Origin: an uncultured Gammaproteobacteria bacterium
Lineage (GTDB): Bacteria > Pseudomonadota > Gammaproteobacteria > JACCXJ01
NCBI GenBank assembly: GCA_963764725.1
Contig: CAVXTM010000003.1
Location: forward strand, 1 to 45,151
Direction of reading: 5' to 3'
DNA length: 45,151 nt
In this document: positions 7,648 to 28,188 of the stretch, piece by piece
Layout of the letters: the number at the start of each line of letters is the position of its first letter
Numbering within the stretch: the first letter of the stretch is position 1
Program-made: the position numbers and the translations under genes
Notes under the pieces: generated by a model
The model's input: only the letters and a program-made list of their open reading frames with translations
What the model was told of the DNA's origin: nothing
The model's database searches: none

Positions 7648-8367
7648 CTAGCTATCCTTCACATGGGTCTCCCGGTGCGCAGCAGGTGGTCGCACATCCT
7701 CGCCCGTAACCTGATAGATCACGTTTTCACGCAGGTTAACGGTATATTCGCCGATGCGCTCGAGCGCGTTCAGCGCCAGCACCACGGCGATCACTTGGCC
7801 TATCATGCGCGCGTCCTCCAGCACGAAGGTGGTCAGACGCCGTAGATCGGAGGAGAGCCAAGAAAGAAGCTCTTTGCGCGCCCCCAGGCCCTCCTCCGCC
7901 GACGTCACATCCCCGCGGTCGAAGATCTCAAGCGCTTGCCGCAGGCGTCCAGAAACCGCGCGTCCCATCCCGATCACGTTCTTCAAGAGCGTTTCCGGCG
8001 GGCTATTGGTCTCCTCGTCGAAGGCATTGACTACAAACTCCGCTACCCGTATCACCTTCTCCTCGATCCGGCCTAGATCGACCAACACCTTGGACATACC
8101 GATCACCGCGCGCAGGTCCTTGGCAACTGGGGTACGCTTGGCGATCACTTGGACGATCTCGGCATCGATCATCTTCTCGAGGTCGCGCACCGTTTCGTCG
8201 CGCTCGATGACCTGGCGCGCTCGGGAGGGATCCCACTGGTCCAAGGCCTTGAGCGTCACGTTGAGCTGCTCGAGCACGATTCCGCCCATCTCCAGCACCC
8301 GGATATGAGCATTGGTGAGTTCAGCGTCGTAGCGGCGCATGGTATGCCCTTCGAGTTGAGCGTTCAT
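7648..8367 (-). CDS. phoU: Phosphate signalling complex protein PhoU
   Basis: PVAKDLR, ALERIGE, YQVTGEDVR; last gene of the pst operon. Confidence 0.9.
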   Translation of the reverse strand: MNAQLEGHTMRRYDAELTNAHIRVLEMGGIVLEQLNVTLKALDQWDPSRARQVIERDETVRDLEKMIDAEIVQVIAKRTPVAKDLRAVIGMSKVLVDLGRIEEKVIRVAEFVVNAFDEETNSPPETLLKNVIGMGRAVSGRLRQALEIFDRGDVTSAEEGLGARKELLSWLSSDLRRLTTFVLEDARMIGQVIAVVLALNALERIGEYTVNLRENVIYQVTGEDVRPPAAHRETHVKDS

Positions 8368-8383
8368 AAGGGATATGCCTCCA

Positions 8384-9265
8384 TCAGCCGAAACGGCCCG
8401 TGATGTAATCCTCGGTTAAGGGATGCAAGGGATTGGTAAACACCTGGTCCGTCGCGCCGACCTCGATCAGATCACCAAGGTGAAAATAAGCGGTGCGCTG
8501 GGAGACGCGCGCGGCCTGCTGCATCGAGTGGGTGACGATGGCGATGGTGAAATTCTGGCGCAGCTCGTCCATCAGATCCTCAATCTTCGCGGTGGCAATG
8601 GGATCGAGCGCCGAGCAAGGTTCATCCATCAAGATCACTTCGGGGCTCACGGCGATGGTGCGTGCGATACAAAGGCGTTGCTGCTGACCGCCCGAGAGGC
8701 CGGTCCCGGGTTGCTGCAATCGGTCTTTCACTTCAGTCCAGAGACCGGCACGCTCGAGACTATGCTGAACTATCTCCTCCAGGTCCGTCTTGTCGTTCGC
8801 GAGGCCGTGAATCCGCACGCCATAGGCGATGTTCTCGAATATGGACTTCGGAAAGGGGTTGGGCTTCTGGAATACCATGCCGACCTGGGCGCGCAGCGGC
8901 ACCACGTCCATCCTCTTATCGTAGATGTCCGTTTCGTCGAGCTTGATCTCGCCGGCCACGCGACAGCCCTCGACCGTGTCGTTCATTCGGTTCAGACAGC
9001 GTATGAACGTCGACTTGCCGCAACCCGAGGGGCCGATCATCGCTATGACCTCGTTGGCGCCGATATCGAGCGAGAGATCACGAATCGCTTGCTTGTCGCC
9101 GTAGTAGACATCGACCTTGCGGCAGGTCATGCGCGGATTCTTTACAAAGGGATCACCGACCGTCCTACGATCTTCGCGGTCTATCGCCACCTTGGGCTTC
9201 AGCGATTCGACCGTCGTCTCGGGAACGCTGCGTTGCACCTGTTGCTTCTCGATTACGGATTCCAT
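8384..9265 (-). CDS. pstB: Phosphate ABC transporter ATP-binding protein
   Basis: [53 protein letters not shown]. Confidence 0.97.
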
Positions 9266-9290
9266 TAGCTTCCTCTATCAGACGTTGTGG

Positions 9291-10616
9291 TTACCAGCGG
9301 CGCTCAAAACGCTTGCGCAACACGATCGCGACCGAATTCATCAAGACCATGAACACCAGGAGCACCATGATTGCCGCCGACGTGCGTTCCATGAAGGCCC
9401 GCTCCGGGCTGTCGGCCCAGAGATAGATCTGCACCGGCAAGCCCGTGGCGGGATCCATAACCCCCCGAGGGATGTCGGCGATGAAGGCCACCATGCCGAT
9501 CATGAGGAGCGGTGCGGTCTCACCGAGGGCGCGCGCCATGCCGATGATGGTGCCGGTGAGCATTCCGGGCATCGCCAAGGGCACCACGTGGTGAAATACC
9601 GTCTGCACCTTGGAGGCGCCGATTCCCAACGCGCCGTCGCGTATGGACGGCGGCACGGCCTTCAGCGCCGAACGGCTTGCGACGATGATGATGGGCAGGG
9701 TCATGAGCGCCAGGACGATGCCGCCGACCAAGGGCGCCGAGCGCGGCAAGCCGATAAAATTGATGAACACTGCCAGGCCGAGCAACCCGAAGACGATGGA
9801 TGGGACGGCCGCGAGATTGTTTATGTTGACCTCGATGAGGTCCGTCCAACGGCTCTTGCGCGCGAACTCCTCGAGATAGATCGCCGCGGAGACGCCGATC
9901 GGGAAGGACAGGAGCAAGGTAACGAGGAGCGTATAGAAGGAGCCTACCGTGGCGCCCCAAATCCCCGAAAGCTCGGGTTCGCGCGAATCGCCGCCCGTGA
10001 AGAATGTGGTATTAAAACGCTTCTCGATCTGCCCCCGCCGGATGAGCTGGTCGATCCAGGCGACTTGCTTGGCTTGCAGTCCCGCAGCGGCACCTGTCGC
10101 ATCACGCTCGCTGTGGCCTTTCATAAGCATATCGACGGTGTCGCTCGCGGTCACCCAGACCTTCTGCTTCGTACCTACCACTCCCGGATCCTCGAGCACC
10201 TTCTTGCGTAGCTCGAACGCTGCGCCGCTGCTCAGCAGGTCTGATAGCGCCCGCTTGTCGGTCCGTGCCGTGACCTCCGGGAACACGCTCGCAAGCGCGC
10301 GTTTGACCAGTCCGCCGTAATCCGCTGCGGATAGGACCGCCGGGTCGCGTTTACCCTCGGGGTCGATGACTTGAGGGTCGAAATAGACCTCCAGCCCGAT
10401 GCGGGTCTGCCAGATCGCTTGATGACCGGTGGCGATGATGCTCGCGAACAGCGCCGCCACGAAGATGAAGCTCACGACCACCGCCAGCCAGCCGAAGAAG
10501 CGGAACCGCCGCTCGCGGGCGTAACGGCGGGCCAGCCCTGCGCGAACGGTATCGATGGCCCTGGGGCGCTCGGGGGTCTTTGCTTTTGTACCTAGGCCGT
10601 CGGTCGCGCTATTCAT
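9291..10616 (-). CDS. pstA: Phosphate ABC transporter permease PstA
   Basis: AIYLEEF, NLAAVPSIVFGLLG, ARALGETAPL. Confidence 0.95.
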   Translation of the reverse strand: MNSATDGLGTKAKTPERPRAIDTVRAGLARRYARERRFRFFGWLAVVVSFIFVAALFASIIATGHQAIWQTRIGLEVYFDPQVIDPEGKRDPAVLSAADYGGLVKRALASVFPEVTARTDKRALSDLLSSGAAFELRKKVLEDPGVVGTKQKVWVTASDTVDMLMKGHSERDATGAAAGLQAKQVAWIDQLIRRGQIEKRFNTTFFTGGDSREPELSGIWGATVGSFYTLLVTLLLSFPIGVSAAIYLEEFARKSRWTDLIEVNINNLAAVPSIVFGLLGLAVFINFIGLPRSAPLVGGIVLALMTLPIIIVASRSALKAVPPSIRDGALGIGASKVQTVFHHVVPLAMPGMLTGTIIGMARALGETAPLLMIGMVAFIADIPRGVMDPATGLPVQIYLWADSPERAFMERTSAAIMVLLVFMVLMNSVAIVLRKRFERRW

Positions 10617-11991
10617 ACTGCTCCCGGTATTTCCGCACGATGTGTAGCGCGATGATGTTGAGGACCAAGGTCACTGCGAACAGCACCAATCCGAGCGCGA
10701 AGGCCGCCAAGGTCTTGGGACTGTCGAACTCCTGATCGCCCACGAGCAAGGTCACGATCTGCACGGTCACGGTCGTGACCGCCTCGAACGGATTTGCCGT
10801 GAGGTTTGCCGCGAGCCCTGCGGCCATCACCACGATCATGGTCTCGCCGATGGCGCGGGAGACCGCGAGCAGGACGCCCCCGACGATCCCCGGCAAGGCC
10901 GCCGGGATCACCACCTGACGGATGGTCTCGGATTTGGTCGCCCCGATGCCGTAGGAGCCATCGCGCAGGGCCTGCGGCACGGCGTTGATCACGTCGTCCG
11001 CGAGCGAAGACACGAAGGGGATGATCATGATCCCCATCACCAGTCCCGCGGCGAGCGCGCTCTCCGAGGAGATGCTCAATCCGACGGCGGCGCCGGTGTC
11101 GCGGATCACGGGGGCAACGATCAGGGCGGCAAAGAAGCCGTAGACCACTGTCGGGATCCCCGCGAGCACCTCCAGCACCGGTTTCGCGACGGTGCGAAAT
11201 CGACGGTCGGCGTACTCGGAGAGGTAGATCGCCGACATCAATCCGATGGGGACTGCAACCGCCATCGCGATCCCGGAGATGAGCAAGGTCCCGGTAAAGA
11301 GCGGCACGGCGCCGAAGGCACCCGAGCCACCGACCTGGTCGGCGCGGATGGCGACCTGAGGGCTCCACTTGAGACCGAAAAGGAAGTCGCTGACCGGCAC
11401 CTGCTGGAAGAAGCGAATGGACTCGAACAGCACCGACAACACGATGCCTAGGGTGGTAAAGATCGCGATCGTGGAGCTAGCGATGAGAAAGGCGCGGATC
11501 ACCGCCTCGACGCGGTTGCGAGCGCGCAGATCGGCGCGAATGCCCCGTAGCGCATAAGCCCCACCCGCGATCGCGAGCGATAGCACGAATACCGCGAGGG
11601 CCGCCGAGCTCAATCCCTCCAAGTGGCGGTAACGCTCCGCCGCCGCCACCACCGCCGGGTCGACTTGGCCGGCCGGGATGCTACCCTTGACGACATTCTT
11701 GATATCGTTGACCAGCAGATCGATCCGGGCCTCGGATTGCTCCCGCATCTCTTGCGGAAGCTCGGCGACCACGAGCTTGGTCACGATGGTCGGCTCGAAG
11801 GAGAGCCATGCCGCGAATAGGAGGAAGGCGGGGATACCACACCAGAGCGCGGTGTAGAACCCGTGGTAGCTCGGCAGCGAGTGCAGGGTGCGCACGCTTC
11901 CGTTCGCGACGCGCAACGAGCGCCCGCGGCCGAGATAGAACGCCAGGCTCGTCAGGGCGAGCAGGACAATGACCAGAGGTGCAGCCTGCAT
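10609..11991 (-). CDS. pstC: Phosphate ABC transporter permease PstC
   Basis: AIYLSEYA, LAGIPTVVYGFF, SRAIGETMIV. Confidence 0.95.
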   Translation of the reverse strand: MQAAPLVIVLLALTSLAFYLGRGRSLRVANGSVRTLHSLPSYHGFYTALWCGIPAFLLFAAWLSFEPTIVTKLVVAELPQEMREQSEARIDLLVNDIKNVVKGSIPAGQVDPAVVAAAERYRHLEGLSSAALAVFVLSLAIAGGAYALRGIRADLRARNRVEAVIRAFLIASSTIAIFTTLGIVLSVLFESIRFFQQVPVSDFLFGLKWSPQVAIRADQVGGSGAFGAVPLFTGTLLISGIAMAVAVPIGLMSAIYLSEYADRRFRTVAKPVLEVLAGIPTVVYGFFAALIVAPVIRDTGAAVGLSISSESALAAGLVMGIMIIPFVSSLADDVINAVPQALRDGSYGIGATKSETIRQVVIPAALPGIVGGVLLAVSRAIGETMIVVMAAGLAANLTANPFEAVTTVTVQIVTLLVGDQEFDSPKTLAAFALGLVLFAVTLVLNIIALHIVRKYREQYE

Positions 11992-12069
11992 GGTCAGACG
12001 CTCAGGTTACTTGGCCGCATGGTGTAGTGTAGGCGCCGAGCAGTTCGTTCCCGGAGCCTGTGCGCTCTC

Positions 12070-12214
12070 GGGAAGCTCTGCAAAAGTTACTGTGCAGCCC
12101 ATCTGCTTTGTCGCGTGCTCGCTCGTCGCTCGCCTATCTACCTGATATGCCTCGCGACGCGCTCCGCGGCTTCGCGCATCTGGCCTTGCTCGCGACACTT
12201 TTGTAGAGCTTCCC
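12070..12214. mobile_element. MITE-like element, copy 2 (145 bp), between pstS and pstC
   Basis: GGGAAGCTCTGCAAAAG...CTTTTGTAGAGCTTCCC followed by TA; left flank is TC. Confidence 0.75.
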
Positions 12215-13269
12215 TAGTTCTCCGATAAGGATAGGGTCTTCATGTTCTTGACGTCGGCGGCTACCTGCGCGCGCTCTTCCGTTGGCATCGGGATAAGCCC
12301 CTTGTCCGCCAGATAGCCTTCATCGCCCCATGCCTTGTCGCTCGTGAACTCGGCCAGGAACTCCTTCATCCCCGGGATCACGTCCATATGCGCCAACTTC
12401 ACATAGATATAGAGTGGTCTCGAGATCTCGTAGGATCCATCGGCGATCGACTCGAAGGTCGGCTCTACACCATCCATGACTGCCCCTTGGACCTTGTCGG
12501 TGTTCTGCTCGAGGAAGCTGTAACCGAAGATGCCCAAGGCATTCGGATTGGCCTGGATCTTCTGCAGGATCAGGTTGTCGTTCTCGCCTGCCTCGACGTA
12601 GGCGCCGTCCTCGCGCACCGTATGGCAGATGGCTTTGTACTGCTCCTCGTCCTTGTCCTTGAGCGCCTTGATCCAATCAAAGGTTTTACAGCCGCCCTCC
12701 ATCGCAAGCTCGGCGAAGGCGTCGCGCGTTCCGGAGGTCGGGGGAGGGCCTAGGACCTCGATCTTTTTGTCCGGCAGCGCCGGATTGACATCCTTCCATG
12801 TCTTATAAGGGTTCGCTATCACGGCTTCCCCGCCCTTGGGATCGGGGACGTCCTTGGCGAGCGCGAGATAGAGGTCCTTGACGCTGAGCTTATACGGTGG
12901 CGACGCCTTTGAATTGGCGATGGCGATCCCGTCGTAGCCGATCTTGACCTCCAGGATGTCTTTGACACCGTTCTGCTCGCAGCCCTTGACCTCGGAATCC
13001 TTGATGCGCCGCGAGGCATTGGCGATATCCGGGTGGTCTACCCCAACCCCGGCACAAAAGAGCTTCATCCCCCCTCCCGTACCCGTCGACTCGATCTTAG
13101 GCGTCTTGAAGCTGCCGGTCTTACCGAACTGCTCGGCGACGGTGGTTGCAAAGGGGTAAACCGTGGATGAGCCGACGATGGTGATATAATCTCTGGCGGC
13201 CAGGGCGGCCGGATTGTATGCCAGCCCGAGGACCGCGGCGCCGGCGACGAGGGTCTTCTTGATCATCAC
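12214..13269 (-). CDS. pstS: Phosphate ABC transporter substrate-binding protein
   Basis: Signal peptide, IVGSSTVYPF, ESTGTGGG, NASR, PPTSGTRD, YEISRPLYIY. Confidence 0.95.
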   Translation of the reverse strand: MMIKKTLVAGAAVLGLAYNPAALAARDYITIVGSSTVYPFATTVAEQFGKTGSFKTPKIESTGTGGGMKLFCAGVGVDHPDIANASRRIKDSEVKGCEQNGVKDILEVKIGYDGIAIANSKASPPYKLSVKDLYLALAKDVPDPKGGEAVIANPYKTWKDVNPALPDKKIEVLGPPPTSGTRDAFAELAMEGGCKTFDWIKALKDKDEEQYKAICHTVREDGAYVEAGENDNLILQKIQANPNALGIFGYSFLEQNTDKVQGAVMDGVEPTFESIADGSYEISRPLYIYVKLAHMDVIPGMKEFLAEFTSDKAWGDEGYLADKGLIPMPTEERAQVAADVKNMKTLSLSEN

Positions 13270-13464
13270 TGCATTCTCCTCCTCTTATTGAGAACCGTAA
13301 ACACGGGCGACCGCCCCTATGGCGGTCGCGCACCGCTCAAGGTGTCTCCGTTGCGTGCCGTAGCCTGTTATACCGAAGGAATGCGACGAAGTCGTGACAA
13401 CCCCGGCTAAAGTTCGGAAACCCACCGCGGTCAGATACCGTACAGACGCCGGCCAGAAACTTTC

Positions 13465-13498
13465 ATGCTATAGGTCCTTTATGACAGTTCGATGACAG
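13465..13498 (-). promoter_or_regulatory. Consensus Pho box plus -10 of the pst operon
   Basis: Minus strand CTGTCAT-CGAA-CTGTCAT (13498-13481), 10 bp, then TAGCAT. Confidence 0.9.
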
Positions 13499-17867: not shown

Positions 17868-20081
17868 TCAGACTCCGATTTCGCCACCGTCGTTCTTGGT
17901 GATGACGATGGTCGCCGTGCGCGGACGTGAGAGACCGCCATCCGGCCAATGGCTGCCGAACGCGCCGGTGGCAAAATCCGGCGTGGTGCTTTCGCCCGGG
18001 TGTTGGATGTTGACGAATATCGTCCTGCCGTCCGGGGTTTCCGCGATGCCGGTGATCTCGCACTCCTTCGGGCCCACCAGGAAGCGGCGCAGGCGCTTTT
18101 CGCCCAACTCCTTGCCGACGGGGGTCTCGACGGATTGGGTTACGGCTCCGTCTACATTGGCCACGGTCCTTCGGGCGCCGTCTCCCACTTCGCCCGGGAC
18201 GGCGGCCAGCAGCATGCAGTTGGTAGCATCGGTATACGCGCCGTCGTCGGTATGGAACCACAACAACCCGGGATTCGCACGACTGAACCACACGCTGTCG
18301 GGGCTGGAGAAGTCGTTCGCGTCGGTCAGACCGGAGATATTGACGTTGGTCGCGTCTGCGCTGGCACGCGCGCCGAACAGGAACACGTCCCACCTGAACG
18401 CGGTCGCGTCGACTTTGCCCTGCGCCTCGGCTAAGCGAATGATATGGCCGTTGGGGTTGCCTAGCTGATCCTCGCCGGTGGTCTTCCGGTCGTTATAGAA
18501 GCGTGGATTGGCGGCGTCGACACTGGTGATCGGACGGCTCGAGGCGTTGGTATTGGTCAAGGTGACATACACCTCGCCGTTCTTCGGATGGACGGCGGCC
18601 CACTCCGGGCGATCCATCTTGGTGGCGCCCGCCGCGTCGGCGGCCAGACGCGTGTTGATCATCACGTCGGCCTGATCGGCGAAGGCATAGGCCGGGTTGG
18701 TAGGGGTGATATTGTTGATCCCGAAGCTCAGCTCTCTCCATTCACCGGTACCATCGGCGTTGAACGTGGCCACGTAGAGCTTGCCGTCGTCCAGATACTT
18801 GTCACCCGCAGCCATTCCCTCGTCGGCGTCGCGGGGATCCCAGCGCCGGTTCGACACGTACTTATAGATGTACTCGTTGCGCGCATCGCAGCCCATGTAG
18901 GACACGAGCGGCTCGCCCTTCTTTGCCGGCCCGAGCCACGCGCCTTCGTGCGCGAAACGGCCAAGCGCGGTGCGCTTCTTGGGGATTGACGTTTTATTGA
19001 ACGGATCGACTTCCACCACCCAACCGTAGGTGTTCGCGACATTACGATAATCGTCGCTGCCGTCGGCGGAGGCGCCGAGCTTCATCGCGTTCCAACGACC
19101 ATAGAAGTCGTCCGCCGTATCGGGGGTCACCGTCGCCCACAGCTCACGGCCGTTACCCGCCACGCCGTAGCGCGCGAACGAGGCCAGCTCCTTCGCCGTG
19201 CGATTGGGGTCATCGGTCGCGACGATACGCCGGAAATACCCGGCCCAGTTTTCCTCACAGGTCAGATAGGTGCCCCACGGCGTGGCGCCGTTCGCGCAGT
19301 TATTGACGGTGCCGCGCGTTTCCGACCCATCGGGCGAGAATTTGGTGATCATGTACGGAGTCTTCGCCGCCGGTCCGGACAGCTCCATGGGCGTCAACGT
19401 GTGAATGCGACGGTTGAAGCGGGAGTCTTGCTTGTAGCTCCACTCCCCTTTCTTCCCTCGCTTCTTAACCACCTTAATGACACTGACGCCATGCAGGTAG
19501 AATTCGCGCAGCACTTCGCCCGCTACGGTTCGCGCCCCGTCGACGACGGTTTGGCCGGTCGGGTGAAGGAAGGCCGGTGTGATCGCTTCATGGTTGACGC
19601 ACAGTAGACCGCGGTGCGAGCAGTTCTCGTCGCGCTTACCATTGGGGCTTAGGCCGAAGTAACTCATGCCGTCGTGGTGATCGCCCGCACGCTGCGCGAA
19701 GCTGGCAGGATCGTCCGTGCCATCGTTCAGGTAGTCGGCGACGCCAGCGGCGATCGGATCGCCCAGACGGTATAGCACGTCATAGCTGTACCCCGGCGGC
19801 ACTGTGACGACATCTGCCAGACTCTTAGGGACAGCGTCAAAACCAAGCTTCAAGGAATGCGGCCGGACACTCTGATCTCCGTGCCGTTGACAGGCAGCCC
19901 AAGCAGAGCCTAAACCAACGCTGCCGAAGACCGCCATGGCAGCGGCGCCGGCGGTGCCGCGCAGCAACTGGCGGCGCGAAAGGCGCATTTGCAGAATGCT
20001 GTCGAAGGAAGGGTTATGTGATGTGTTGGTTATTGCGTCTTCGTCATTATCAGAGAAAAACGTTACGTGCTTGTCGGTCAT
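17868..20081 (-). CDS. phoX: PhoX family alkaline phosphatase (Tat-exported), copy 1
   Basis: SRRQLL Tat motif, GDHHDGM, VNHE, NNCANGATPWGTYLTCEEN, GRFAHE, MDRPEW, SSPD, CEITG, NIQHPG; AAGGAG RBS before ATG 20081. Confidence 0.93.
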   Translation of the reverse strand: MTDKHVTFFSDNDEDAITNTSHNPSFDSILQMRLSRRQLLRGTAGAAAMAVFGSVGLGSAWAACQRHGDQSVRPHSLKLGFDAVPKSLADVVTVPPGYSYDVLYRLGDPIAAGVADYLNDGTDDPASFAQRAGDHHDGMSYFGLSPNGKRDENCSHRGLLCVNHEAITPAFLHPTGQTVVDGARTVAGEVLREFYLHGVSVIKVVKKRGKKGEWSYKQDSRFNRRIHTLTPMELSGPAAKTPYMITKFSPDGSETRGTVNNCANGATPWGTYLTCEENWAGYFRRIVATDDPNRTAKELASFARYGVAGNGRELWATVTPDTADDFYGRWNAMKLGASADGSDDYRNVANTYGWVVEVDPFNKTSIPKKRTALGRFAHEGAWLGPAKKGEPLVSYMGCDARNEYIYKYVSNRRWDPRDADEGMAAGDKYLDDGKLYVATFNADGTGEWRELSFGINNITPTNPAYAFADQADVMINTRLAADAAGATKMDRPEWAAVHPKNGEVYVTLTNTNASSRPITSVDAANPRFYNDRKTTGEDQLGNPNGHIIRLAEAQGKVDATAFRWDVFLFGARASADATNVNISGLTDANDFSSPDSVWFSRANPGLLWFHTDDGAYTDATNCMLLAAVPGEVGDGARRTVANVDGAVTQSVETPVGKELGEKRLRRFLVGPKECEITGIAETPDGRTIFVNIQHPGESTTPDFATGAFGSHWPDGGLSRPRTATIVITKNDGGEIGV

Positions 20082-20144
20082 GGCTGTCTCCTTAAATGGA
20101 ATCGAGGAGCAACACGAATCGTTGCCCTTTGTCAGAGGGGGCTC

Positions 20145-20190
20145 ACCGTAACGGGGTTTTGTTAAATTATTATGACGGGCGGAGTGACAG
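20145..20190 (-). promoter_or_regulatory. Pho box plus -10 for phoX copy 1
   Basis: Minus strand CTGTCAC..CCGTCAT-AATA-ATTTAAC (20178-20161), 10 bp, then TACGGT. Confidence 0.65.
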
Positions 20191-20228
20191 CGTTTTCCGA
20201 AGGAAGAAGGCAGGACGAATGTCTTGAC

Positions 20229-20355
20229 GACAAGGATCTGAACAACTTCGATGCGGCCGTCGGTAGCGTCAAGATTGGCCGATATCCCTTTGGGATAGAC
20301 CTCGATCCCCACAGCAAAACGTTATTCGTCAGTCACGTCGGCGTATTTGCATACC
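20229..20355 (+). pseudogene. Possible fragment of a YVTN/YncE-type beta-propeller protein
   Basis: VGSVKIGRYPFGIDLDPHSKTLFVSHVG resembles a single YVTN repeat; no intact gene. Confidence 0.35.
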
Positions 20356-20559
20356 AGCATCTGCGTCCCCCGAGTCCGGAGCCGGCGTGTGGTTGAAGGT
20401 AGACCCTGGGCTAGGTGAGTTATGTTGGTGGTGTTAGGGATGCTCACGCCGAACGCCTTGTCCAATGGAGGACTTGGTTACGATCCCGTATCCGGGTGCA
20501 CGCTTATCGCATGGGACGATCCTGGTCTGCAAGTAAAAGCCGATGTAGTTCTCCATAGT

Positions 20560-20581
20560 AAAAAAAACCCTCTCGCGAGGG
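20560..20581 (-). terminator. Weak rho-independent terminator candidate
   Basis: Hairpin CCCTC-N4-GAGGG followed by a T8 tract on the minus strand. Confidence 0.35.
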
Positions 20582-20849
20582 CTCCCTAAAAACCACATTG
20601 AGGGCGGTTCTCAGTGGGGAGGGAGTTGCAACTGACGGCGTGAAACCTCTGTGACGGGGGTCTCAATCGATCGGATCAATATCACCGGCTGGAAAAAAGT
20701 TTGGTAACGACGGGTCGCACGACGATTAAGAAGCAGCGACAGTCAGATTCACGGACGAAACACCCGCGGTCCATCGCGGCCGCCTGCGGGTCTTCGCGGT
20801 AAAGTCGGTTAGGTTCCGTTGCCGCGAAGGATCTCCGATTCAGGCGAAC

Positions 20850-22109
20850 CTATTGCCGGGTGTTTACACCGCGACCCACACCTACGGACGTCGCGCTTAC
20901 GAGTTGAACCCGCCTACTATGCGCAGTGCGAGGGTTTGCGAAGAGCCCTGTCAGCAGCATTTCGAATTGTTGGACCACGCACTGCCAGCCGAGGGTGGCC
21001 ACGTATTCCCGCGCTTGGCACCGCATTCTGGGCAGCGACTGCAGCTCGTGCGCGAGATCCGTCGCGGTGGTCACGAAGGCTTCTGAGTCGCCGTAGGGAA
21101 CCAGAACGCCAGTCTCGCCATGCGTGATGTGCAGGTGTGCGGCGGCATAGTCATAGGCGACCACTACCAAGCCGCTGGCCATCGCTTCCAGCGTCACATT
21201 GCCGAATGTTTCCGTGTCGCTAGGAAAGAGAAATACGTCCGCCGAGGCATAATGTCTCGCCAACTGCTCACCTCGATGCACCCCGCAGAAGAGCAAATCG
21301 GGATGGTCCTTTTGCAGCATGGCACGCTGCGGCCCGTCCCCGACAATTACAAATTTGATTGACTTGCTGTTCGCTTGCATGGCGCGGTAGGCGGTGATGG
21401 CGAGCCCGAGATTTTTTTCCGGTGCCACCCGCCCCACATAGAGAACGACCAGATCGTGCTCGGAGACGTCCCAGGTCTTCCGCAGTGCCTGACAGCGGCG
21501 TGCCGGGGTAAACAGCTGACTATCGACACCGCGGCCGAGAACACTGACATTCTTGAAGCCACAGGCGTGCAGCCGGTCCCGGAGCTCGATGCTGGGTACC
21601 AGGGTGCCGGTAGTCCGGTTATGAAACCAACGGAGATAGAGGGCGACTAAATGTTGCAACCAGCCCGCCCGGTAGTGCCTCGAGTAGCTGTGAAAGTTGG
21701 TATGAAAGCCACTCAAGACCGGTATTCCTAAACGCTGGGCGGTCCGCACTGCCGACCACTCCAGAGGGCCCTCCGTGGCCACGTACACTACATCTGGACG
21801 GTGCTGCGTCCAGCACTCGCGCAGCAATCCGCCCGCCGGCAAGCCAACGTGCAATCCCTTATACCCAGGTAACGGGACGCCGTGCACCAGGGTCACCTCG
21901 GGATCGCGTCCGTAACTCGGGCCATCAGCACCCCACTGGCGCGGACACACCACCGATACTGCATGACCACATACTTTCAATCCGTCCACCAGGCGCGCTA
22001 AGGTGAGTGCCACGCCGTTGACTTCGGGTGGATAGGTGTCGGTAACGACACAAATATGATGTTGTTGTAAAGCGCGGTGATGAGACCGGGCCGGGTAGGT
22101 AGTAGGCAT
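20850..22109 (-). CDS. GT4 glycosyltransferase (GT-B; MgtA/Agt-like putative glycolipid synthase)
   Basis: VVTDTYPPEVNGVA, VATEGPL, FHTNF, GRGVD, YVGRVAPEKN, FPSDTETFGNVTLEAMASG. Confidence 0.85.
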   Translation of the reverse strand: MPTTYPARSHHRALQQHHICVVTDTYPPEVNGVALTLARLVDGLKVCGHAVSVVCPRQWGADGPSYGRDPEVTLVHGVPLPGYKGLHVGLPAGGLLRECWTQHRPDVVYVATEGPLEWSAVRTAQRLGIPVLSGFHTNFHSYSRHYRAGWLQHLVALYLRWFHNRTTGTLVPSIELRDRLHACGFKNVSVLGRGVDSQLFTPARRCQALRKTWDVSEHDLVVLYVGRVAPEKNLGLAITAYRAMQANSKSIKFVIVGDGPQRAMLQKDHPDLLFCGVHRGEQLARHYASADVFLFPSDTETFGNVTLEAMASGLVVVAYDYAAAHLHITHGETGVLVPYGDSEAFVTTATDLAHELQSLPRMRCQAREYVATLGWQCVVQQFEMLLTGLFANPRTAHSRRVQLVSATSVGVGRGVNTRQ

Positions 22110-22222
22110 CAGTGCGCCGCCCCTTTTCGCGCGTGAGTCATTGAGTTGCGCGTGCCGGACAAAGGATCTCTCTTTCCGCTCGACACAGTACAAGAACAGT
22201 ACAAAATAAGTGTGTTCTTTTC

Positions 22223-22251
22223 GTGATGATTACATGACGATTGCCTTACAT
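22223..22251 (-). promoter_or_regulatory. Pho-box-like array facing GT4
   Basis: Minus strand ATGTAAG-GCAA-TCGTCAT-GTAA-TCATCAC with 11-bp period; the -10 is weak. Confidence 0.55.
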
Positions 22252-22295
22252 TTGGTTTTGCCGGCAACGGTTGCTCCGCAGAACACAGTTACTGT

Positions 22296-22329
22296 TTGTC
22301 ATGATTCTTTCATAAAAGGATTGTATTAA
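22296..22329 (+). promoter_or_regulatory. Pho box plus -10 facing the Mpo1-like gene
   Basis: TTGTCAT-GATT-CTTTCAT (22296-22313), 10 bp, then TATTAA. Confidence 0.7.
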
Positions 22330-22367
22330 AGCACCTTCGGTTTTCTTACGCGCAGATAGGAGAGTTT

Positions 22368-22976
22368 ATGAACAGCTTTTTTCGGGCTCTAGAAACGCAA
22401 CGGTGGGACGATCACCGCTATTACCACCACAGCCGCATCAACCAGTCGCTGCATTTACTGAGCGCGGCCAGCTTTCTGTGCACCTACGTGCTGCTGTTCA
22501 CCGATCCGGCCGCTGCAGCGCTGGTCGGCTGGCTGGTTGCTATGGTCAGCCGGCAGGTCGGGCACTTCTACTTCGAGCCCAAGGGCTACGATGAAGTTAA
22601 TCAGACAACACACGAACACAAGGAAGAGATCAAGGTGGGCTACAACCTCAGGCGCAAGGTTGTACTGCTGGGGATCTGGGCCGTCTCACCGCTGGCGCTT
22701 TACATTGATCCGACGCTTCTGGGGTTCTTTGAGCCCCAGGCGGGCTCCGCCGACTTCGTGCACCGCATGGCGGTACTCTGGATCGCGATAGGCCTAGGCG
22801 GACTGTTGTTCCGGACGGTGCACCTGTTTTTTCTGCAGGGCGTGCAGACCGGACTGGTGTGGCTGACGAAGATTCTCACGGATCCGTTTCATGACATCAA
22901 GCTTTACCACACGGCCCCGCTGTACCTGTTGCGCGGCGAGCTGATCGATCCGGGCCCGGCGAAGCGGCACGCTTGA
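22368..22976 (+). CDS. His-rich membrane protein, Mpo1/DUF962-like
   Basis: YYHHSRINQSLH and RQVGHFYFE resemble the DUF962/Mpo1 H..N...H and Q..GH..FE motifs; several TM segments; GGAG RBS. Confidence 0.6.
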   Translation: MNSFFRALETQRWDDHRYYHHSRINQSLHLLSAASFLCTYVLLFTDPAAAALVGWLVAMVSRQVGHFYFEPKGYDEVNQTTHEHKEEIKVGYNLRRKVVLLGIWAVSPLALYIDPTLLGFFEPQAGSADFVHRMAVLWIAIGLGGLLFRTVHLFFLQGVQTGLVWLTKILTDPFHDIKLYHTAPLYLLRGELIDPGPAKRHA

Positions 22977-23036
22977 GGGTGCGGGTCGCGGTCGCCCCTA
23001 TACAGTGCGGCCGGACGGAAATGGGCGGGGAGACCG

Positions 23037-24686
23037 TCAGAAGCGGTGCGCGATGATCTCTCGCAGAATACGGCGCTTGATCGATCTGTTCGTCAACGCA
23101 GGGCCCGACCACCACCAGCCTTCTTGCTGCATGGCCCGGGCGGCTGCCACGAACCGGTCCGCGACCGCGTCGAAATCGGCGTCCGTATAGTCGAGGCTGA
23201 AGATGAGGCGGCCGGTACCCACCCAACTCAGGGCCAGTCCTTCAGCGCGCAGGTAGTACTGGAGCATCCAGTTGTAGCGCGACGGCTGCGTGTAGCAGAC
23301 GGTCCAGATCGACGACAGGCTCGCCACCTGCACCGGCAGGCCTTCCTCCCGCAGGCGTCGATTGAGCCGTTCGGCCCGGTCGCTCCAGATCTCATCGAGG
23401 TTGCGGTACAGCGCTCGAACCTGCAGGGTGTCGAGGCGCTGCAGGAACTCGTGCATGGCTCCCATGACGTAGGGATGCGAGTTGAAGGTGCCGCGAGCGA
23501 AGCAAATGTCCGTCGGGCGATCCTCGCGAAAGCGCTTCATCAAGTCCCGGCGACCGCAAACGGCGCCAATCGGCAAGCCACCGCCGAGGGTCTTGCCGTA
23601 GGTGACCATGTCGGCCCGGACACCGAAGTACTCCTGGGCCCCGCCCGGCGCAAGTCGAAAGCCGGTAAAGACCTCGTCGAATATCAGCGCAATCTTGCGC
23701 TCGGTGCAGACGGCGCGCAGCCGCATCAGCCATTCGGTGTAGGCCGCCCGATCGAAGAATGCGCTGCGCGCGCTGTCGACCAGTGCGGCGTCACCCGGCG
23801 CGTTCGCGTTCGGATGGAGCGCTTGCAGCGGATTTACAATAACGCAAGCGATATCGCGGCGTTTGCTCAACACTCGAAGCGTATCATCGTCCATGTCTTT
23901 CAAGGTATAGGTTTCGCGCGCCGGCAAGGGGTTGCCGACACCCGGCTGGACATCTCCCCACCATCCGTGGTAAGCCCCGCAGAAACGCACCAAGTGCGAC
24001 CGCCGCGTGTGGTAGCGCGCAAGCCTTACTGCCTGCATGACCGCCTCCGTGCCGGACATGTGGAACGACACCTCCTCGAGCCCGGCGATCTCCGTCAGCC
24101 GCTGCACGTTGTAAGCGACGACGGGATGATAGGCGCCGAGCACGGGTCCGAGCGCGCGCACGCGTTCAATGCCGCACGCCACGCACTCCTTGTAGAAGTC
24201 GTAGCCGAAGACATTCACGCCGTAGGAGCCGGTCAGATCATAGAAGCGGTTGCCGTCGAGATCGGTGAGGCTGACTCCGGAGGACGAGCGAACGAACGCC
24301 CCTGCCTTGAGGTGCCGGCGTACGAAGCGGCTGTATTGGAAGGGCACGCGGTAGGCGCCGGTAAACTGCAGATCGGAGATGCTGTCCTCGACCTCCACGG
24401 TGAGCCGCAGCGTTTCCGGGAAGCGCTCCCGATAGAGATCCGCAAGCCGCATGAAACCGGCGCGGCGACGGGCGGCTATATCTTCCGGCGCATCGTCGGA
24501 TCGGAAGAACCGCGCCTCGTCGTACTCGTAGAACGGTACGAGCGCTGCGATCCGTCGCGCGATACGGGAATGGCCGGACAATGACCGGTGCTTCGCCTTG
24601 GAAAGCGCGAGGCGCATCTTCAGTTGCTGAAGCGACGCGACCAATACGGCGCCGCTGAGCGCGTACAAAACCAATGTTGCGTCCAC
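23037..24686 (-). CDS. Class III PLP aminotransferase, glutamate-1-semialdehyde aminomutase-like, with N-terminal membrane anchor
   Basis: DLDGNRFYD, SGTEAVM, GAYHG, FDEVFTGFR, YGKTLGGGLP (PLP Lys), RGTFNSHP. 549 aa with a hydrophobic N-terminus. Confidence 0.85.
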   Translation of the reverse strand: MDATLVLYALSGAVLVASLQQLKMRLALSKAKHRSLSGHSRIARRIAALVPFYEYDEARFFRSDDAPEDIAARRRAGFMRLADLYRERFPETLRLTVEVEDSISDLQFTGAYRVPFQYSRFVRRHLKAGAFVRSSSGVSLTDLDGNRFYDLTGSYGVNVFGYDFYKECVACGIERVRALGPVLGAYHPVVAYNVQRLTEIAGLEEVSFHMSGTEAVMQAVRLARYHTRRSHLVRFCGAYHGWWGDVQPGVGNPLPARETYTLKDMDDDTLRVLSKRRDIACVIVNPLQALHPNANAPGDAALVDSARSAFFDRAAYTEWLMRLRAVCTERKIALIFDEVFTGFRLAPGGAQEYFGVRADMVTYGKTLGGGLPIGAVCGRRDLMKRFREDRPTDICFARGTFNSHPYVMGAMHEFLQRLDTLQVRALYRNLDEIWSDRAERLNRRLREEGLPVQVASLSSIWTVCYTQPSRYNWMLQYYLRAEGLALSWVGTGRLIFSLDYTDADFDAVADRFVAAARAMQQEGWWWSGPALTNRSIKRRILREIIAHRF

Positions 24687-24723
24687 GAGTCTCGGAACCC
24701 TACGTGAGCGACTTTACAATACG

Positions 24724-25644
24724 ATGACCGTGCGATCCGTGATTTCCCGGATCTTCCAGCAGGAAGACCTCAATTTTCTCCTGACGAACCGCATTCCGCG
24801 GCGTCTGCTCACCCAACTCATGGGCTGGTTCAGCCAGATCGAGCATCCGCTGGTGCGCGATCTGTCGATCGGCGTTTGGCGAATTTTCGCCGACCTAAAC
24901 CTGGAGGAAGCCAAGAAGACGCAGTTCCGGAGCATGCACGATTGCTTTACAAGGGAGCTCAAAGACGGGGCGCGGCCGATCGACCCGGAACCCGCCGTGC
25001 TCGCGTCCCCATGTGACGCTATTGTCGGCGCTGCGGGCCGCATCGAGGGCACCACGCTAATCCAGGCCAAAGGCTTCCCGTACACGCTGCACGATCTGCT
25101 CGGCGATTCGGAGCTGGTGCGTGTCTACCGCGACGGCTGCTACGTCACGCTTCGGATCACCTCGAGCATGTACCACCGGTTCCACGCCCCGCATGACTGT
25201 CGAGTCAAGCAGGTTGCCTACCTGTCCGGAGACACGTGGAACCTAAACCCGATCGCGCTCAAGCGTGTTGAAAAGCTCTTCTGCAAAAACGAGCGGGCGA
25301 TACTTGAGACCCGGCTGGAAGCGACGGGGCATACGGTCACCTTAGTGGCGGTCGCGGCGGTGCTCGTCGCCAGCATCCGCCTGCACTTCCTCGATATCCT
25401 GCTGCATCTCAAGCATCGCGGGCCGAATGTCATCCCCTGCGATGCGTCGTTCCGCAAGGGCGAGGAGATGGGTTGGTTTCAGCACGGATCAACCATTATC
25501 GTATTCGCGCCCGACGGCTTCAAGCCGTGCGAGCACGTGAAAGAAGGAACCGTTATCCTTACCGGACAGCCCCTATTGCGGTTGCCGGAGCGCGATCGCG
25601 CGCCTCCCCGTGGTGAGCCAAGGGCCGGGGAGCTATGGCCGTAG
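24724..25644 (+). CDS. psd: Phosphatidylserine decarboxylase family proenzyme
   Basis: FTRELKDGARP, SPCD, QAKG, YHRFHAP, KNER, KGEEMGWFQHGST (self-cleavage GST motif). Confidence 0.9.
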   Translation: MTVRSVISRIFQQEDLNFLLTNRIPRRLLTQLMGWFSQIEHPLVRDLSIGVWRIFADLNLEEAKKTQFRSMHDCFTRELKDGARPIDPEPAVLASPCDAIVGAAGRIEGTTLIQAKGFPYTLHDLLGDSELVRVYRDGCYVTLRITSSMYHRFHAPHDCRVKQVAYLSGDTWNLNPIALKRVEKLFCKNERAILETRLEATGHTVTLVAVAAVLVASIRLHFLDILLHLKHRGPNVIPCDASFRKGEEMGWFQHGSTIIVFAPDGFKPCEHVKEGTVILTGQPLLRLPERDRAPPRGEPRAGELWP

Positions 25645-25725
25645 CAGAGGGAGGTGAGTGTGATGCGAGCCGCCTCTCGATCTCGCGCTTGCCCGTGACG
25701 TCGGTCACCTTCCTTCTATCAATGG

Positions 25726-28188
25726 CTACTCAAGGTCGTCGCCCGGGACAAACGGACCACCGTTGACGCGACGGATCCCGATCGTTGCCGGTTTGGGCGC
25801 CCCAAGCGCGTTGCCGCCGAGGTTGCTCGGCCAGTTGCTGCCGCGCGGTAGCGTGCGGTTCTGCATGAACGTGTTGCCGTCCAAACCGAGCAGCTCGAGG
25901 TCACGGTTGAGTCTGCTCGCCGGGGTGCCGTCGTTCGGAATCGAATCCTCGCTCGGATGCTGCACCGAAAGGAACAAGGTATCGCCTACAAAAGTCGGAC
26001 CAGTCATCTCGCACCGGGGCGGTCCGTACGCGAAGGGAACGACCTTACCGGCATCTGCGCCCATTGTCGGTACGTAGAACAGCCAGTTGTTCCCGAACAC
26101 GCCAACGAGATCGCTTGCCGCCTCGTTGATGACCGTGTGATCGATGGTCTTCTGTGCCGGGTTCGCGCCAAGGGCGAAGCCGTTGTGCCGCTCGGTCAAC
26201 ATGTCGGTCACGAGCCACAGATTTCCGCGCCGGTCGAACACGAGGTTATCGATTGCGGCGAATCCGGTGCCACCCTCGGCGCCCGCCTCTCCACCTTGGA
26301 GGAAGCGGTCCCAGGTAAAGGTAATGCCCGTGCCGTCACTTGCGTCTTCGATGATCTTATAGAGGCCACCATGGGGCTGCGTCTCCGCAACGCCAGCGCC
26401 GTATTTTCCGAGGACAAAGACACGCGAGTCGGGATAGCCGTCGCTGCCGGCCGCCCCATCGGTCATGGCGATGAACACGTGCTGGGTGAGGGGATGGATC
26501 TCGATGTCCTCAGGTCGTGAGCAGGGCGTGCCGCCGATGAGGTTGGCGGCGAGGAAGGCGTCGCAGAGGAGCGCACCCTGACTGGTATAATAGTCCGATA
26601 GCCGCACCGTCCCGGCCGGCTTGCTGCCGCCTTTCGTTCTGTAGCTCTCGAGCGCCTCCGCCTCGGTGAGCACGATGGGGCTACTGACCCCGTTCAAGGT
26701 CACTGCCAGCGAGCCGCCATCGCTGGTCTGCCCTGCAATGCCATTGCGTCTTGGCAGGAGCACCCCGCCGTCGCGTTGCGCCTTGCCGTCCGTCCGTGCC
26801 GCACGCTCCGCTGAGCTCAGAACGGTGGGCGCGTTGGGATCTACCAGCGTGTTAAGCTCAAGCGGGATCCAGATGCCCGTAGCGTCGCTCATGAATCTCG
26901 CGACATAGAGCGTGCCCTCCGCAAGCAACCCGCTGTTGGCGGGGTCCTGCTCGTGTGTGACATTCGCTCGGCTGACGTATTTCCAGGTGTGGCCGCCGCG
27001 CCGGTCATCACCGAGGTACACGACGATGGGTTTACCGCGCTCGACGCGCATGGCGATGTTCTCGTGCCGGAAGCGACCGAGGGCCGTGTGCTTCTTGCCG
27101 CGCGATTCGGGACCCCGAGGATCGATCTCGACCATCCAGCCGTATTTCTCCCCGAGCAGTCCGAACTCGGCCCCGCTCGTCCCCGTGATGTAGCCGGTCT
27201 GACTGCCGTTCGGCAGCACACCTTCCTGCACGCCTATGAAGAACGTGGCGTTGCCGTGGAAGTTCTCTTCGGCGGAGAGGACCGTGCCCCACGGGGTTCT
27301 GGCCCCCGAGCAATTATAAGCCGTGCCGATGATGCGATTGCCCAGGCCATCGGCATTGACGCCCTCGAACACGTCCGTCGCCGCCGGCCCGGTCCCAACC
27401 AAAAAGCTTCTGTCACCTTGCTGATGGGAAAGGCTCCCCCAGGCGGTCACCGCCTGGTACGGGTCGGTCGGCGCTCGCTCTGCGTTGATGGCAAGCCCCG
27501 AGAGTCCATGAATGCGGCGATTCTTGGCATCGCCCGCCACGGCCTCATACCGGGCGCTCTTACCGTGGCGCCCAGTGCGGCGGACCCGCACGACCGTGCC
27601 GCCGCAGTTGTACAACATCTCGCCTAACACCTGGCGGTCTTTGGTTGTCGGTAAGGCAAAGCCGACGACAAGCGGGAAGGACTCGAATGCGGTTCCCAAC
27701 GACGCGATGTCGGCCGGCGTATCGGGCGAGAGCTTCGAGAACGGGTACGACACGTACTCATGGTTGATGTAGAGGCAGCCATCGTGGTCACTGTCATTGA
27801 GCGGCACAAAGGCCGTGTAATCGTGATTGTAGCCGACATAGTGATCAGGGTCGGCGAACAAGCGGTCACCCCAGCTTGCGATCAAATAGTATTCGTATTC
27901 CGGCGGGACCACGACGTCGTCGATAAGCGTATATTGAGTCAGGTTAACAAGGTCGTGTGAGTGCTTGATCACGCCTATCCCACCGATCCCCGTCGCGAGC
28001 CAGCTGTTCCTTTCCGAATAGATGGGTAGCGGATGAGGCAGGCGCAGGGGGGTCAGGCCGCCGGGTTTGCCGGTCTTCGCGGCCGGCGCAAACAGGCTCT
28101 CCCTGGATCTGGACATGCACGAGACGGCAATGGCGCTGGCACCAAGGCCCATGAACTTCAGAAACCTTCTGCGAGTGGCCTCATTCAT
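25726..28188 (-). CDS. phoX: PhoX family alkaline phosphatase (Tat-exported), copy 2
   Basis: TRRRFLK Tat motif, GYNHDY, INHEY, NCSGARTPWGTVLSAEEN, GRFRHEN, SRPED, CEMTGP, SVQHP. Confidence 0.9.
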   Translation of the reverse strand: MNEATRRRFLKFMGLGASAIAVSCMSRSRESLFAPAAKTGKPGGLTPLRLPHPLPIYSERNSWLATGIGGIGVIKHSHDLVNLTQYTLIDDVVVPPEYEYYLIASWGDRLFADPDHYVGYNHDYTAFVPLNDSDHDGCLYINHEYVSYPFSKLSPDTPADIASLGTAFESFPLVVGFALPTTKDRQVLGEMLYNCGGTVVRVRRTGRHGKSARYEAVAGDAKNRRIHGLSGLAINAERAPTDPYQAVTAWGSLSHQQGDRSFLVGTGPAATDVFEGVNADGLGNRIIGTAYNCSGARTPWGTVLSAEENFHGNATFFIGVQEGVLPNGSQTGYITGTSGAEFGLLGEKYGWMVEIDPRGPESRGKKHTALGRFRHENIAMRVERGKPIVVYLGDDRRGGHTWKYVSRANVTHEQDPANSGLLAEGTLYVARFMSDATGIWIPLELNTLVDPNAPTVLSSAERAARTDGKAQRDGGVLLPRRNGIAGQTSDGGSLAVTLNGVSSPIVLTEAEALESYRTKGGSKPAGTVRLSDYYTSQGALLCDAFLAANLIGGTPCSRPEDIEIHPLTQHVFIAMTDGAAGSDGYPDSRVFVLGKYGAGVAETQPHGGLYKIIEDASDGTGITFTWDRFLQGGEAGAEGGTGFAAIDNLVFDRRGNLWLVTDMLTERHNGFALGANPAQKTIDHTVINEAASDLVGVFGNNWLFYVPTMGADAGKVVPFAYGPPRCEMTGPTFVGDTLFLSVQHPSEDSIPNDGTPASRLNRDLELLGLDGNTFMQNRTLPRGSNWPSNLGGNALGAPKPATIGIRRVNGGPFVPGDDLE

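Follow-up and report, generated by a model that had tools for sequence, protein, structure and literature searches.

Replacing phospholipids is a main route by which soil and aquatic bacteria survive phosphorus scarcity and, to our knowledge, the replacement lipids known so far arise from only a few pathways: PlcP-Agt, OlsBA/OlsF, and BtaAB. Lipid remodeling by PlcP-Agt under phosphate starvation has been described in Sinorhizobium/Agrobacterium, SAR11, Pseudomonas aeruginosa, and Methylosinus trichosporium OB3b (PMC9239053), and the part of the Methylosinus paper drawn on here covers PlcP-Agt and ornithine lipid only (PMC9239053). The locus described here lies at positions 20,850 to 25,644 of a 45-kb (45,151-nucleotide) stretch of DNA (hereafter, the window), which is the whole of contig CAVXTM010000003.1 (C3) within a 4.2-Mb, 19-contig metagenome-assembled genome (MAG) of an uncultured gammaproteobacterium (contamination, 1.76%). 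Its core is a trio of genes encoding an Mpo1-like membrane protein, a membrane-anchored class III aminotransferase dependent on pyridoxal 5′-phosphate (PLP), and a paralogue of phosphatidylserine decarboxylase (PSD), and beside these stands a glycosyltransferase of family 4 (GT4). With slightly better than even confidence, we read the trio as one conserved, phosphate (Pho)-regulated enzyme module at the cytoplasmic face of the inner membrane that would turn a lipid head group into a primary amine. Full-text literature searches found no description of this gene set, and NCBIfam (June 2026) holds no specific model for either the aminotransferase or the Mpo1-like protein; we are probably dealing with a Pho-controlled lipid-remodeling set with new enzymology.

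The four genes alternate in strand: GT4 (20850..22193, minus), the Mpo1-like gene (22368..22976, plus), the aminotransferase gene (23037..24686, minus), and psd (24724..25644, plus) form two divergent pairs that meet tail to tail. That all four are intact open reading frames (ORFs), as an initial annotation of the window had it, was confirmed by reading the frames. They do not form one operon, since genes on alternating strands cannot share a single transcript. Scans of positions 20300 to 25800 for sigma-70 promoters and terminators returned nothing beyond chance level. A 512-aa ORF antisense to the aminotransferase gene was rejected as a shadow frame, third-position GC favoring the minus strand.

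The psd paralogue, the anchored aminotransferase, and the Mpo1-like protein are a set co-inherited in many soil bacteria. Relatives of the aminotransferase are present in at least 596 species genomes, and we kept the best 80 related loci. These represent at least three phyla (Alpha-, Beta-, and Gammaproteobacteria, Polyangia/Myxococcales, and Vicinamibacteria), and their aminotransferases are 61 to 89% identical to that of the window. Around the aminotransferase in these 80 loci, tblastn recovers the Mpo1-like gene and the psd paralogue in 76 loci each and GT4 in 67, which bears out the conserved clustering on which the initial annotation depended; by ORF clustering, the corresponding numbers are 73, 68, and 63, with the aminotransferase in all 80. 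The four loci in which the Mpo1-like gene is missing are each cut off by a contig edge next to the aminotransferase. Of the four that lack psd, two likewise start with the aminotransferase at a contig edge, whereas in L049 and L084 upstream DNA is present and contains no psd. Among 300 evenly drawn Pseudomonadota genomes, which are kin to one another, such that the counts amount to no statistical test, the aminotransferase occurs in 20 and the Mpo1-like gene in 21, including every one of those 20; in the one genome left over, the Mpo1-like gene is split. Each of five complete carrier genomes contains two PSD genes, one of them adjoining the aminotransferase, and a plasmid of Sphingomonas parapaucimobilis YK209 (NZ_CP155753, 69.5 to 73.6 kb) bears the genes in the order psd, aminotransferase, Mpo1-like, methyltransferase, under generic PGAP names only. 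Dechloromonas sp. H13 (locus L079) and a Zoogloea isolate are further cultured carriers. We therefore regard it as barely credible that the window holds unrelated neighbors that share no pathway, namely a surplus psd alongside genes for a HemL-like enzyme and a hypothetical protein. The alternating strands, which allow no single transcript, and the generic public annotation would suit such an arrangement; adjacency in 76 of 80 loci over several phyla, co-occurrence in 20 of 20 genomes, same-strand operon versions and fusion proteins in other lineages, and an aminotransferase below the HemL cut-off in a genome with a separate hemL all contradict it.

The aminotransferase (549 aa) falls in an AMT/GSAM-like subgroup of class III, named for the aminotransferase (AMT) domain of MycA and for glutamate-1-semialdehyde aminomutase (GSAM). 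Its PF00202 match (3.7e-36; 125.1 bits versus a cut-off of 30.5) spans residues 129 to 515, and its only hydrophobic segment comprises residues 1 to 19, so that the N-terminal extension of more than 100 aa with a hydrophobic anchor noted in the initial annotation is indeed present. The 28 residues that follow the anchor include eight K/R and no D/E, which by the positive-inside rule would place the catalytic domain in the cytoplasm; anchor and adjoining stretch (RLxLSKAKHxSLxGHSR) are kept in relatives of the enzyme. The motif that had been read as RGTFNSHP, in place of the HemL-type motif, is found as CFARGTFNSHP and corresponds to the AMT-type GTFNTHP. By sequence, the best PDB match is the MycA AMT domain (6KFM, 3e-45), which also heads the Foldseek results for the modeled structure (6kfm_A, 8.7e-23, TM 0.77), followed by GSAM, beta-transaminases, PctV, D-phenylglycine aminotransferase, and NeoB. 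Lys365 of a YGK motif, invariant in 25 aminotransferase sequences, aligns with the YGK of MycA AMT and is presumably the PLP lysine. HemL is soluble, lacks a membrane anchor, and has about 430 aa; the window enzyme, at 549 aa with an anchor, scores just 180.5 bits against the HemL model TIGR00713 (cut-off, 527.3); a separate hemL is located at C15:112307-113573 of the same genome (335.2 and 263.1 bits in two frames). The distinction from HemL proposed earlier thus holds, and the enzyme is, as judged from sequence, nearer to the MycA AMT domain.

The PSD paralogue (306 aa, pyruvoyl type) matches PF02666 (1.9e-53, 181.6 bits), exceeds the cut-off of TIGR00163 (160.6 versus 111.75 bits), and aligns to Escherichia coli PSD (7CNW/6L06) from the N-terminal region on. 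It is one of three PSD-family genes in the genome, the others being a near-identical copy on contig C16 and a housekeeping gene adjoining lptF/pepA (C18:428712-429365); as such, the possibility that the window psd is the sole housekeeping copy, which would have undone the initial proposal, is removed. The window protein is 28.9% identical to the genome's housekeeping PSD and 59 to 90% identical to aminotransferase-adjacent PSDs in other phyla (50% in the case of one 70-residue fragment). In E. coli PSD, according to the portion of the source used here, the phosphate is contacted by Tyr137, Ser166, and the amide of Val167, and the leaving carboxylate by His144 (PMC7952604). Asp98, His151, His154, and Gly255-Ser256-Thr257 are kept in 66 to 68 of 68 paralogues, and because the catalytic Asp, both His residues, and the G-S-T are conserved, the paralogue should still be competent to decarboxylate a serine-like alpha-amino acid head group. 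The phosphate contacts differ: the position of Tyr137 is Arg (Arg144 in the window) and that of Ser166 is Asn, each in 67 of 68 paralogues, and the Tyr is kept in three of three housekeeping PSDs compared.

These features bear on a reading in which the module reshapes an existing phospholipid or aminolipid head group (phosphatidylserine [PS]/phosphatidylethanolamine [PE], phosphatidylglycerol, or ornithine lipid) into a new nitrogenous one, psd acting on a phosphate-containing serine lipid. A score above the PS decarboxylase equivalog cut-off, the full retention of catalytic and carboxylate-binding residues, and an Arg144 that could bind phosphate are what such remodeling would predict, as are a GT4 that is sometimes missing and accessory methyltransferases (described below) that resemble PmtA, which acts on PE. 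The systematic change at the phosphate-contact positions relative to housekeeping PSDs points the other way, and Pho boxes together with neighbors that dismantle phospholipids and scavenge phosphate disfavor spending on a new phospholipid during phosphorus starvation; we consider this reading unlikely.

The Mpo1-like protein (202 aa) is a His-rich, helical, DUF962-like membrane protein whose match to PF06127 is weak (4.8e-4) and consistent: the profile is weakly matched by 28 of 28 aligned family members (best E value, 1e-4), where it covers the N-terminal His/Asn-rich region, and one distant orthologue reaches 24.7 bits. Invariant residues in the family alignment include D14, D15, H16, H20, N25, H29, H66, E70, H82, E86, D172, and D176, and this set of His, Asp, and Glu suggests a metal site. 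The AlphaFold2 model is all-helical (mean predicted local distance difference test score, 82.7), and neighbors of the protein in a protein atlas are named DUF962/Mpo1-like. A profile search of 1.84 billion representatives with the family alignment gave 811 matches, of which the 150 listed are close relatives and fragments. Clusters of 53, 45, 21, and 12 sequences carry the Mpo1-like protein fused behind a PmtA-like methyltransferase; two apparent psd-Mpo1-like fusions (P0150 and P0153) proved to be garbled, frameshifted calls and were set aside. One nearby atlas cluster of relatives (72 members) is listed as 55% viral (Uroviricota), and phages may thus carry Mpo1-like relatives.

Yeast Mpo1, the sole characterized family member according to the part of the source that we cite, acts on 2-hydroxy fatty acids as a dioxygenase (PMC10398889). 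This activity invites a scheme of fatty-amine synthesis, in which the Mpo1-like protein would oxidize a 2-hydroxy fatty acid to the 2-oxo acid, the aminotransferase would turn this into a 2-amino fatty acid, and the PSD-like enzyme would decarboxylate the latter to a fatty amine that is then methylated or glycosylated. The substrate of yeast Mpo1 (PMC10398889), a nearest solved aminotransferase that acts on a fatty-acyl carbonyl, and the need of a pyruvoyl decarboxylase for exactly such an alpha-amino acid all fit this scheme. It is nonetheless very unlikely: single-chain amines do not replace bilayer phospholipids, the paralogue retains an N-terminal region that aligns with E. coli PSD, a diacyl-lipid enzyme, and the conserved genes of the module include none for acyl activation or acyl transfer.

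The GT4 gene matches Glyco_trans_1_4 (7e-30) and Glyco_transf_4 (3.4e-27) in Pfam. Its longest ORF is 447 aa, and the likely start is an ATG at 22109 with AAGGGG upstream, which gives a protein of 419 aa. The top NCBIfam matches are lipid glycosyltransferases, all far below their cut-offs (GlcNAc-PG synthase, 151.6 versus 480 bits; MGlcDAG synthase, 92.8 versus 400 bits), and the window GT4 is the best match in its own genome to the GT4s of relatives' modules. In a low-GC, small-genome lineage (loci L101 and L102), the genes run co-directionally as aminotransferase, an 893-aa GT4 fusion protein, psd, and Mpo1-like gene, which ties GT4 to the trio. GT4 forms the C-terminal third of this fusion protein (L101:2344-5022 in genome G013; L102:4012-6669 in genome G288); its N-terminal 539 aa have no Pfam match even at an E value of 5 and start with a DMHCHD...NHNN pattern that presumably recalls metal-dependent phosphoesterases. 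A UDP-glucose-dehydrogenase-family gene directly follows the module in one low-GC genome; searches of the 80 loci and of the second genome of that lineage yielded no such gene, and a role for it in providing a uronic acid donor is a lead only.

Pho control was assessed with the consensus CTGTCAT-N4-CTGTCAT, whose use by this genome is evident from a box with no mismatches at 13481-13498, before pstS. Upstream of the Mpo1-like gene, a box on the plus strand with two mismatches (22296..22313, TTGTCATGATTCTTTCAT) ends 55 bp before the start codon and is conserved in the closest relative (L021). Across 76 related loci, a box with up to three mismatches lies upstream of the Mpo1-like gene in 24, of which 20 are on the sense strand, 42 to 76 bp upstream (20 of 76, versus about 0.02 expected per scan window). 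A second, degenerate box with four mismatches is predicted on the minus strand over the psd start codon, facing the aminotransferase gene (24713..24730, CGGTCATCGTATTGTAAA). When the region of the aminotransferase and psd starts was scanned in 76 related loci (mean, 372 bp; up to three mismatches; expectation taken from the remainder of the loci), 37 had boxes, against 0.03 expected per scan window, and 36 of the 37 share the same offset: in these relatives, the box is directed at the aminotransferase, with its first repeat lying over the psd start codon. The initial annotation was thus right about the 37-bp length of the gap between aminotransferase and psd but wrong in calling it free of a box, since the window's four-mismatch site occupies the relatives' conserved position. 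The divergent boxes that it placed before GT4 and the Mpo1-like gene survive for the latter gene (two mismatches) and not for GT4. An 11-bp direct repeat at 22186-22207 was rejected as a regulator site for GT4, being a recent tandem duplication that is missing in L021 and polymorphic in run X13. By these predictions, the Mpo1-like gene would count as a Pho-regulon member through its two-mismatch box and the aminotransferase gene by position only, with GT4 outside.

The surroundings agree with this assignment. The window was described as a Pho island, and that description is upheld by a phoU-pstBACS operon (7648..13498, minus strand; Pfam matches) headed by the perfect box, two PhoX alkaline phosphatase genes that flank the locus (17868..20312, PF05787 5.5e-130, and 25726..28188, PF05787 1.5e-108, both on the minus strand), a glycerophosphodiester phosphodiesterase (GDPD) gene, and a phytase-like esterase gene. 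In the relatives, module flanks include a PlcP-like metallophosphoesterase (six loci), an OmpR/PhoB-type regulator (six loci), and PhoU (four loci). Taken together, the predicted sites and neighbors support Pho control of the module. Members of the hem, btaA, and olsB families were absent from the window ORFs scanned with Pfam, as had been reported for hem genes, btaAB, and olsBA. In the genome as a whole, one weak OlsB-type match occurs on C18, and a search for the BtaA family was silent, as it was in control genomes, and is hence uninformative.

Accessory genes in the modules of relatives offer a view of the product. Of the 80 loci, 19 contain a methyltransferase whose best NCBIfam match is the phospholipid N-methyltransferase PmtA (141.9 bits, below cut-off), and 10 a different methyltransferase that best matches the ornithine-lipid N-methyltransferase OlsG (121.5 bits, below cut-off); an MprF-flippase-like membrane protein is encoded in 14 and a short-chain dehydrogenase/reductase (SDR) oxidoreductase in 11. 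Because two unrelated types of lipid-amine methyltransferase are joined to one trio, a membrane lipid with a primary amine is suggested as the product. The window's own methyltransferase gene at 31034-31666 was rejected as a counterpart of the module methyltransferases (21% identity, E value 0.004). A FemAB-like (PF04339) gene of acyl/aminoacyl-transferase type and a class I methyltransferase gene lie 4 to 6 kb past psd (29857-31056), within a duplicated segment discussed below. Neither is homologous to the accessory genes of the relatives' modules compared, and the FemAB-like gene shows no relationship to the N-acetyltransferase encoded close to the module of Sphingomonas.

The accessory genes also bear on whether the module might be catabolic, with psd funneling PS to PE, the PLP enzyme stripping the ethanolamine (as a transaminase or as a phospho-lyase akin to the class III ethanolamine-phosphate phospho-lyases) to leave phosphatidate or diacylglycerol, and GT4 glycosylating the remainder, such that phosphorus is freed without phospholipase C. 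The Pho island with its PhoX and GDPD genes would accommodate this route, class III-fold lyases appear among the weaker NCBIfam matches of the aminotransferase (e.g., PbfA, 60.5 bits), and plcP is not beside GT4 in the window. We judge it quite unlikely, however, because the aminotransferase is nearest to aminating enzymes of the AMT/GSAM type and not to lyases, the N-methyltransferase-like and flippase-like genes fit a product lipid and not a breakdown, the Mpo1-like protein would be left without a role, and a PlcP-like gene exists elsewhere in the genome. That gene (C18:393407-394150) encodes a metallophosphoesterase 49% identical to the module-adjacent one in locus L044. Downstream of it, within 392800-394219, only three short remnants of the GT4 type found in relatives' modules are present, which suggests either the decay of a plcP-agt pair or a fault in the assembly.

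Under our preferred reading of the trio as an amine-forming module, the His-rich Mpo1-like protein would, by analogy with its yeast relative, oxidize a hydroxyl-bearing head group to a carbonyl, to which the AMT-like aminotransferase would then add an amino group; the pyruvoyl decarboxylase would strip the carboxylate beside the amine, leaving a primary-amine head group comparable to the ethanolamine of PE. GT4 probably supplies or further decorates a glycosyl-diacylglycerol scaffold that forms when phosphate-starved cells break down their phospholipids. The amine would, in some lineages, be methylated by a lipid N-methyltransferase, and the MprF-like protein may flip the product. More tentatively, and with considerable doubt, we suggest that the module might constitute a full new route to phosphorus-free counterparts of PE and phosphatidylcholine (PC), in which GT4 would make a glycosyl- or uronosyl-diacylglycerol following phospholipid breakdown, the Mpo1-like protein would represent a new family of membrane metallo-oxidases acting ahead of a membrane-tethered transaminase, and the PSD would be retuned to a non-phosphate head group, with N-methylation and flipping of the product in some lineages. 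The candidate amino-lipid pathway of the initial annotation is, on the whole, partly supported: the conserved clustering, the paralogous psd, the non-HemL enzyme, the Pho boxes in relatives, and the methyltransferase- and flippase-like genes speak for it, and we infer the chemical steps, the substrate, and a phosphorus-free product from them.

Several observations weigh against this scheme. Class III enzymes of the subgroup to which the aminotransferase belongs mostly yield non-alpha amines (D-phenylglycine aminotransferase being an exception), and a pyruvoyl decarboxylase requires an amine alpha to the carboxylate; it is thus not a given that the steps proceed in the order proposed. The window's Mpo1-like protein scores 20.6 bits against PF06127, under the gathering cut-off of 24, and Foldseek found no match to its model in the PDB at an E value of 0.001 or less, so that oxidase activity is argued by analogy only. 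The Arg that takes the place of the phosphate-binding Tyr in the PSD paralogue might contact a carboxylate or a sugar but equally a phosphate, so that the substrate may yet be a phospholipid. GT4 is just 29 to 40% identical to most GT4s of relatives' modules (approximately 50% to three), which makes it the loosest member; 13 of the 80 related loci have no GT4 match by tblastn, and the annotation of the S. parapaucimobilis plasmid shows no GT4 next to the module. Finally, the four-mismatch box facing the aminotransferase gene does not, on its own, exceed chance (32 such matches in the window versus 21.0 ± 5.1 in shuffled sequences), and no box within four mismatches faces GT4.

The host can be placed through pmoC, pmoA, and pmoB (families AmoC, AMO, and Monooxygenase_B), which are encoded at C18:232000-243000 (locus L093) and mark it as a methane or ammonia oxidizer; this agrees with the USC-gamma labels of the nearest relatives, the closest protein relatives being assigned to Chromatiales USCg_Taylor or to gammaproteobacterial MAGs. 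Contigs from metatranscriptome X20 (mostly 90 to 99% alike) were rejected as evidence of expression, since they derive from a relative and could reflect DNA carry-over. They span GT4, the Mpo1-like gene, the aminotransferase gene, and psd and omit the intergenic stretches, although diverged spacers would drop out regardless.

Several features of the assembly were recorded alongside. A segment of approximately 15.7 kb that includes the entire module (window 19614-35357) recurs in inverted orientation at C16:488865-504894 with 97.5 to 99.6% DNA identity; in this copy, the aminotransferase protein is 100% identical, GT4 is split over two reading frames, and of the first PhoX there is only a fragment. 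The second copy reflects either a segmental duplication of recent date or a contig from a strain variant within the MAG. On C15, hemL (112307-113573) and another GSAM-like gene (315255-316437) are each read in two adjacent frames, which points to assembly indels or else to genuine frameshifts, and single frameshifts in this genome thus deserve little weight. A repeat of approximately 147 bp flanks the pst operon (window 7479-7624 and 12071-12217, 94.6% identity) and has further copies (84 to 97% identity) at over 25 sites spread across at least seven other contigs; it may be a small dispersed repeat or an element resembling a miniature inverted-repeat transposable element. A 178-aa ORF at 4804-5340 matches the N-terminal domain of polyphosphate kinase only and may be a truncated ppk; the divergent region that it adjoins contains Pho-box-like sites at 5473-5490 and at 5552-5569.

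If the product of the module were identified, membrane biology would gain a lipid class or a head-group chemistry, and functions would be assigned for the first time to a bacterial Mpo1-like protein and a membrane-anchored class III aminotransferase. If the phosphorus-free route to PE and PC counterparts is true, then about 7% of sampled Pseudomonadota species, along with members of Myxococcota and Acidobacteriota, would own a fourth phosphorus-sparing lipid class, beside glycolipids, ornithine lipids, and betaine lipids. Polar-lipid profiles often list unidentified aminolipids and aminoglycolipids, which the module could explain. Given the pmoCAB genes of the host and its USC-gamma-type Chromatiales relatives, the module may also matter for atmospheric-methane oxidizers of nutrient-poor soils and caves.

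Compared with the systems described so far, the locus shares with PlcP-Agt the principle of a Pho-controlled lipid gene set with a GT4 glycosyltransferase of the lipid type, and a PlcP-like gene is found beside the module in 6 of the 80 related loci. PlcP-Agt has, however, no decarboxylase, aminotransferase, or Mpo1-like protein, and its products are amine-free glycolipids (the diacylglycerol lipids MGDG and GADG); the window GT4, for its part, does not adjoin plcP (there is none in the window) and remains under the cut-off of every named lipid-glycosyltransferase model. The MycA AMT domain (6KFM/6KFU), the nearest solved relative of the aminotransferase, aminates a lipid-chain carbonyl and belongs to the same class III subgroup, with GTFN(S/T)HP and the YGK lysine in common; it is a domain of a polyketide synthase/nonribosomal peptide synthetase, whereas the window enzyme is free-standing with its own N-terminal anchor, and no carrier-protein or synthetase gene was seen among the conserved module neighbors scanned. 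Yeast Mpo1, an Fe(II)-dependent dioxygenase of PF06127 (DUF962), is linked to the window protein, which is modeled as a helical membrane protein, by a weak and consistent profile match, but the window protein scores below the gathering cut-off and its family has extra conserved motifs (RQxGHFFFEPKGYD, THEHKE, and TDPFHD). The same kinds of step (oxidation, decarboxylation, and transamination) make up the ArnA/ArnB route to 4-amino-4-deoxy-L-arabinose on lipid A, where the amine offsets membrane charge, although its enzymes are unrelated (an SDR-type decarboxylase and a DegT-type aminotransferase) and its substrate is a nucleotide sugar rather than a membrane lipid. With the PssA/Psd/PmtA route from PS through PE to PC, the module shares the pyruvoyl PSD family, including the self-cleavage G-S-T, the Asp, His, and Ser residues, and the carboxylate-binding His, as well as PmtA-like methyltransferases within the modules of relatives; it differs in that its PSD is a paralogue with Arg and Asn at the phosphate contacts, situated behind Pho boxes and paired with an aminotransferase and an Mpo1-like protein.

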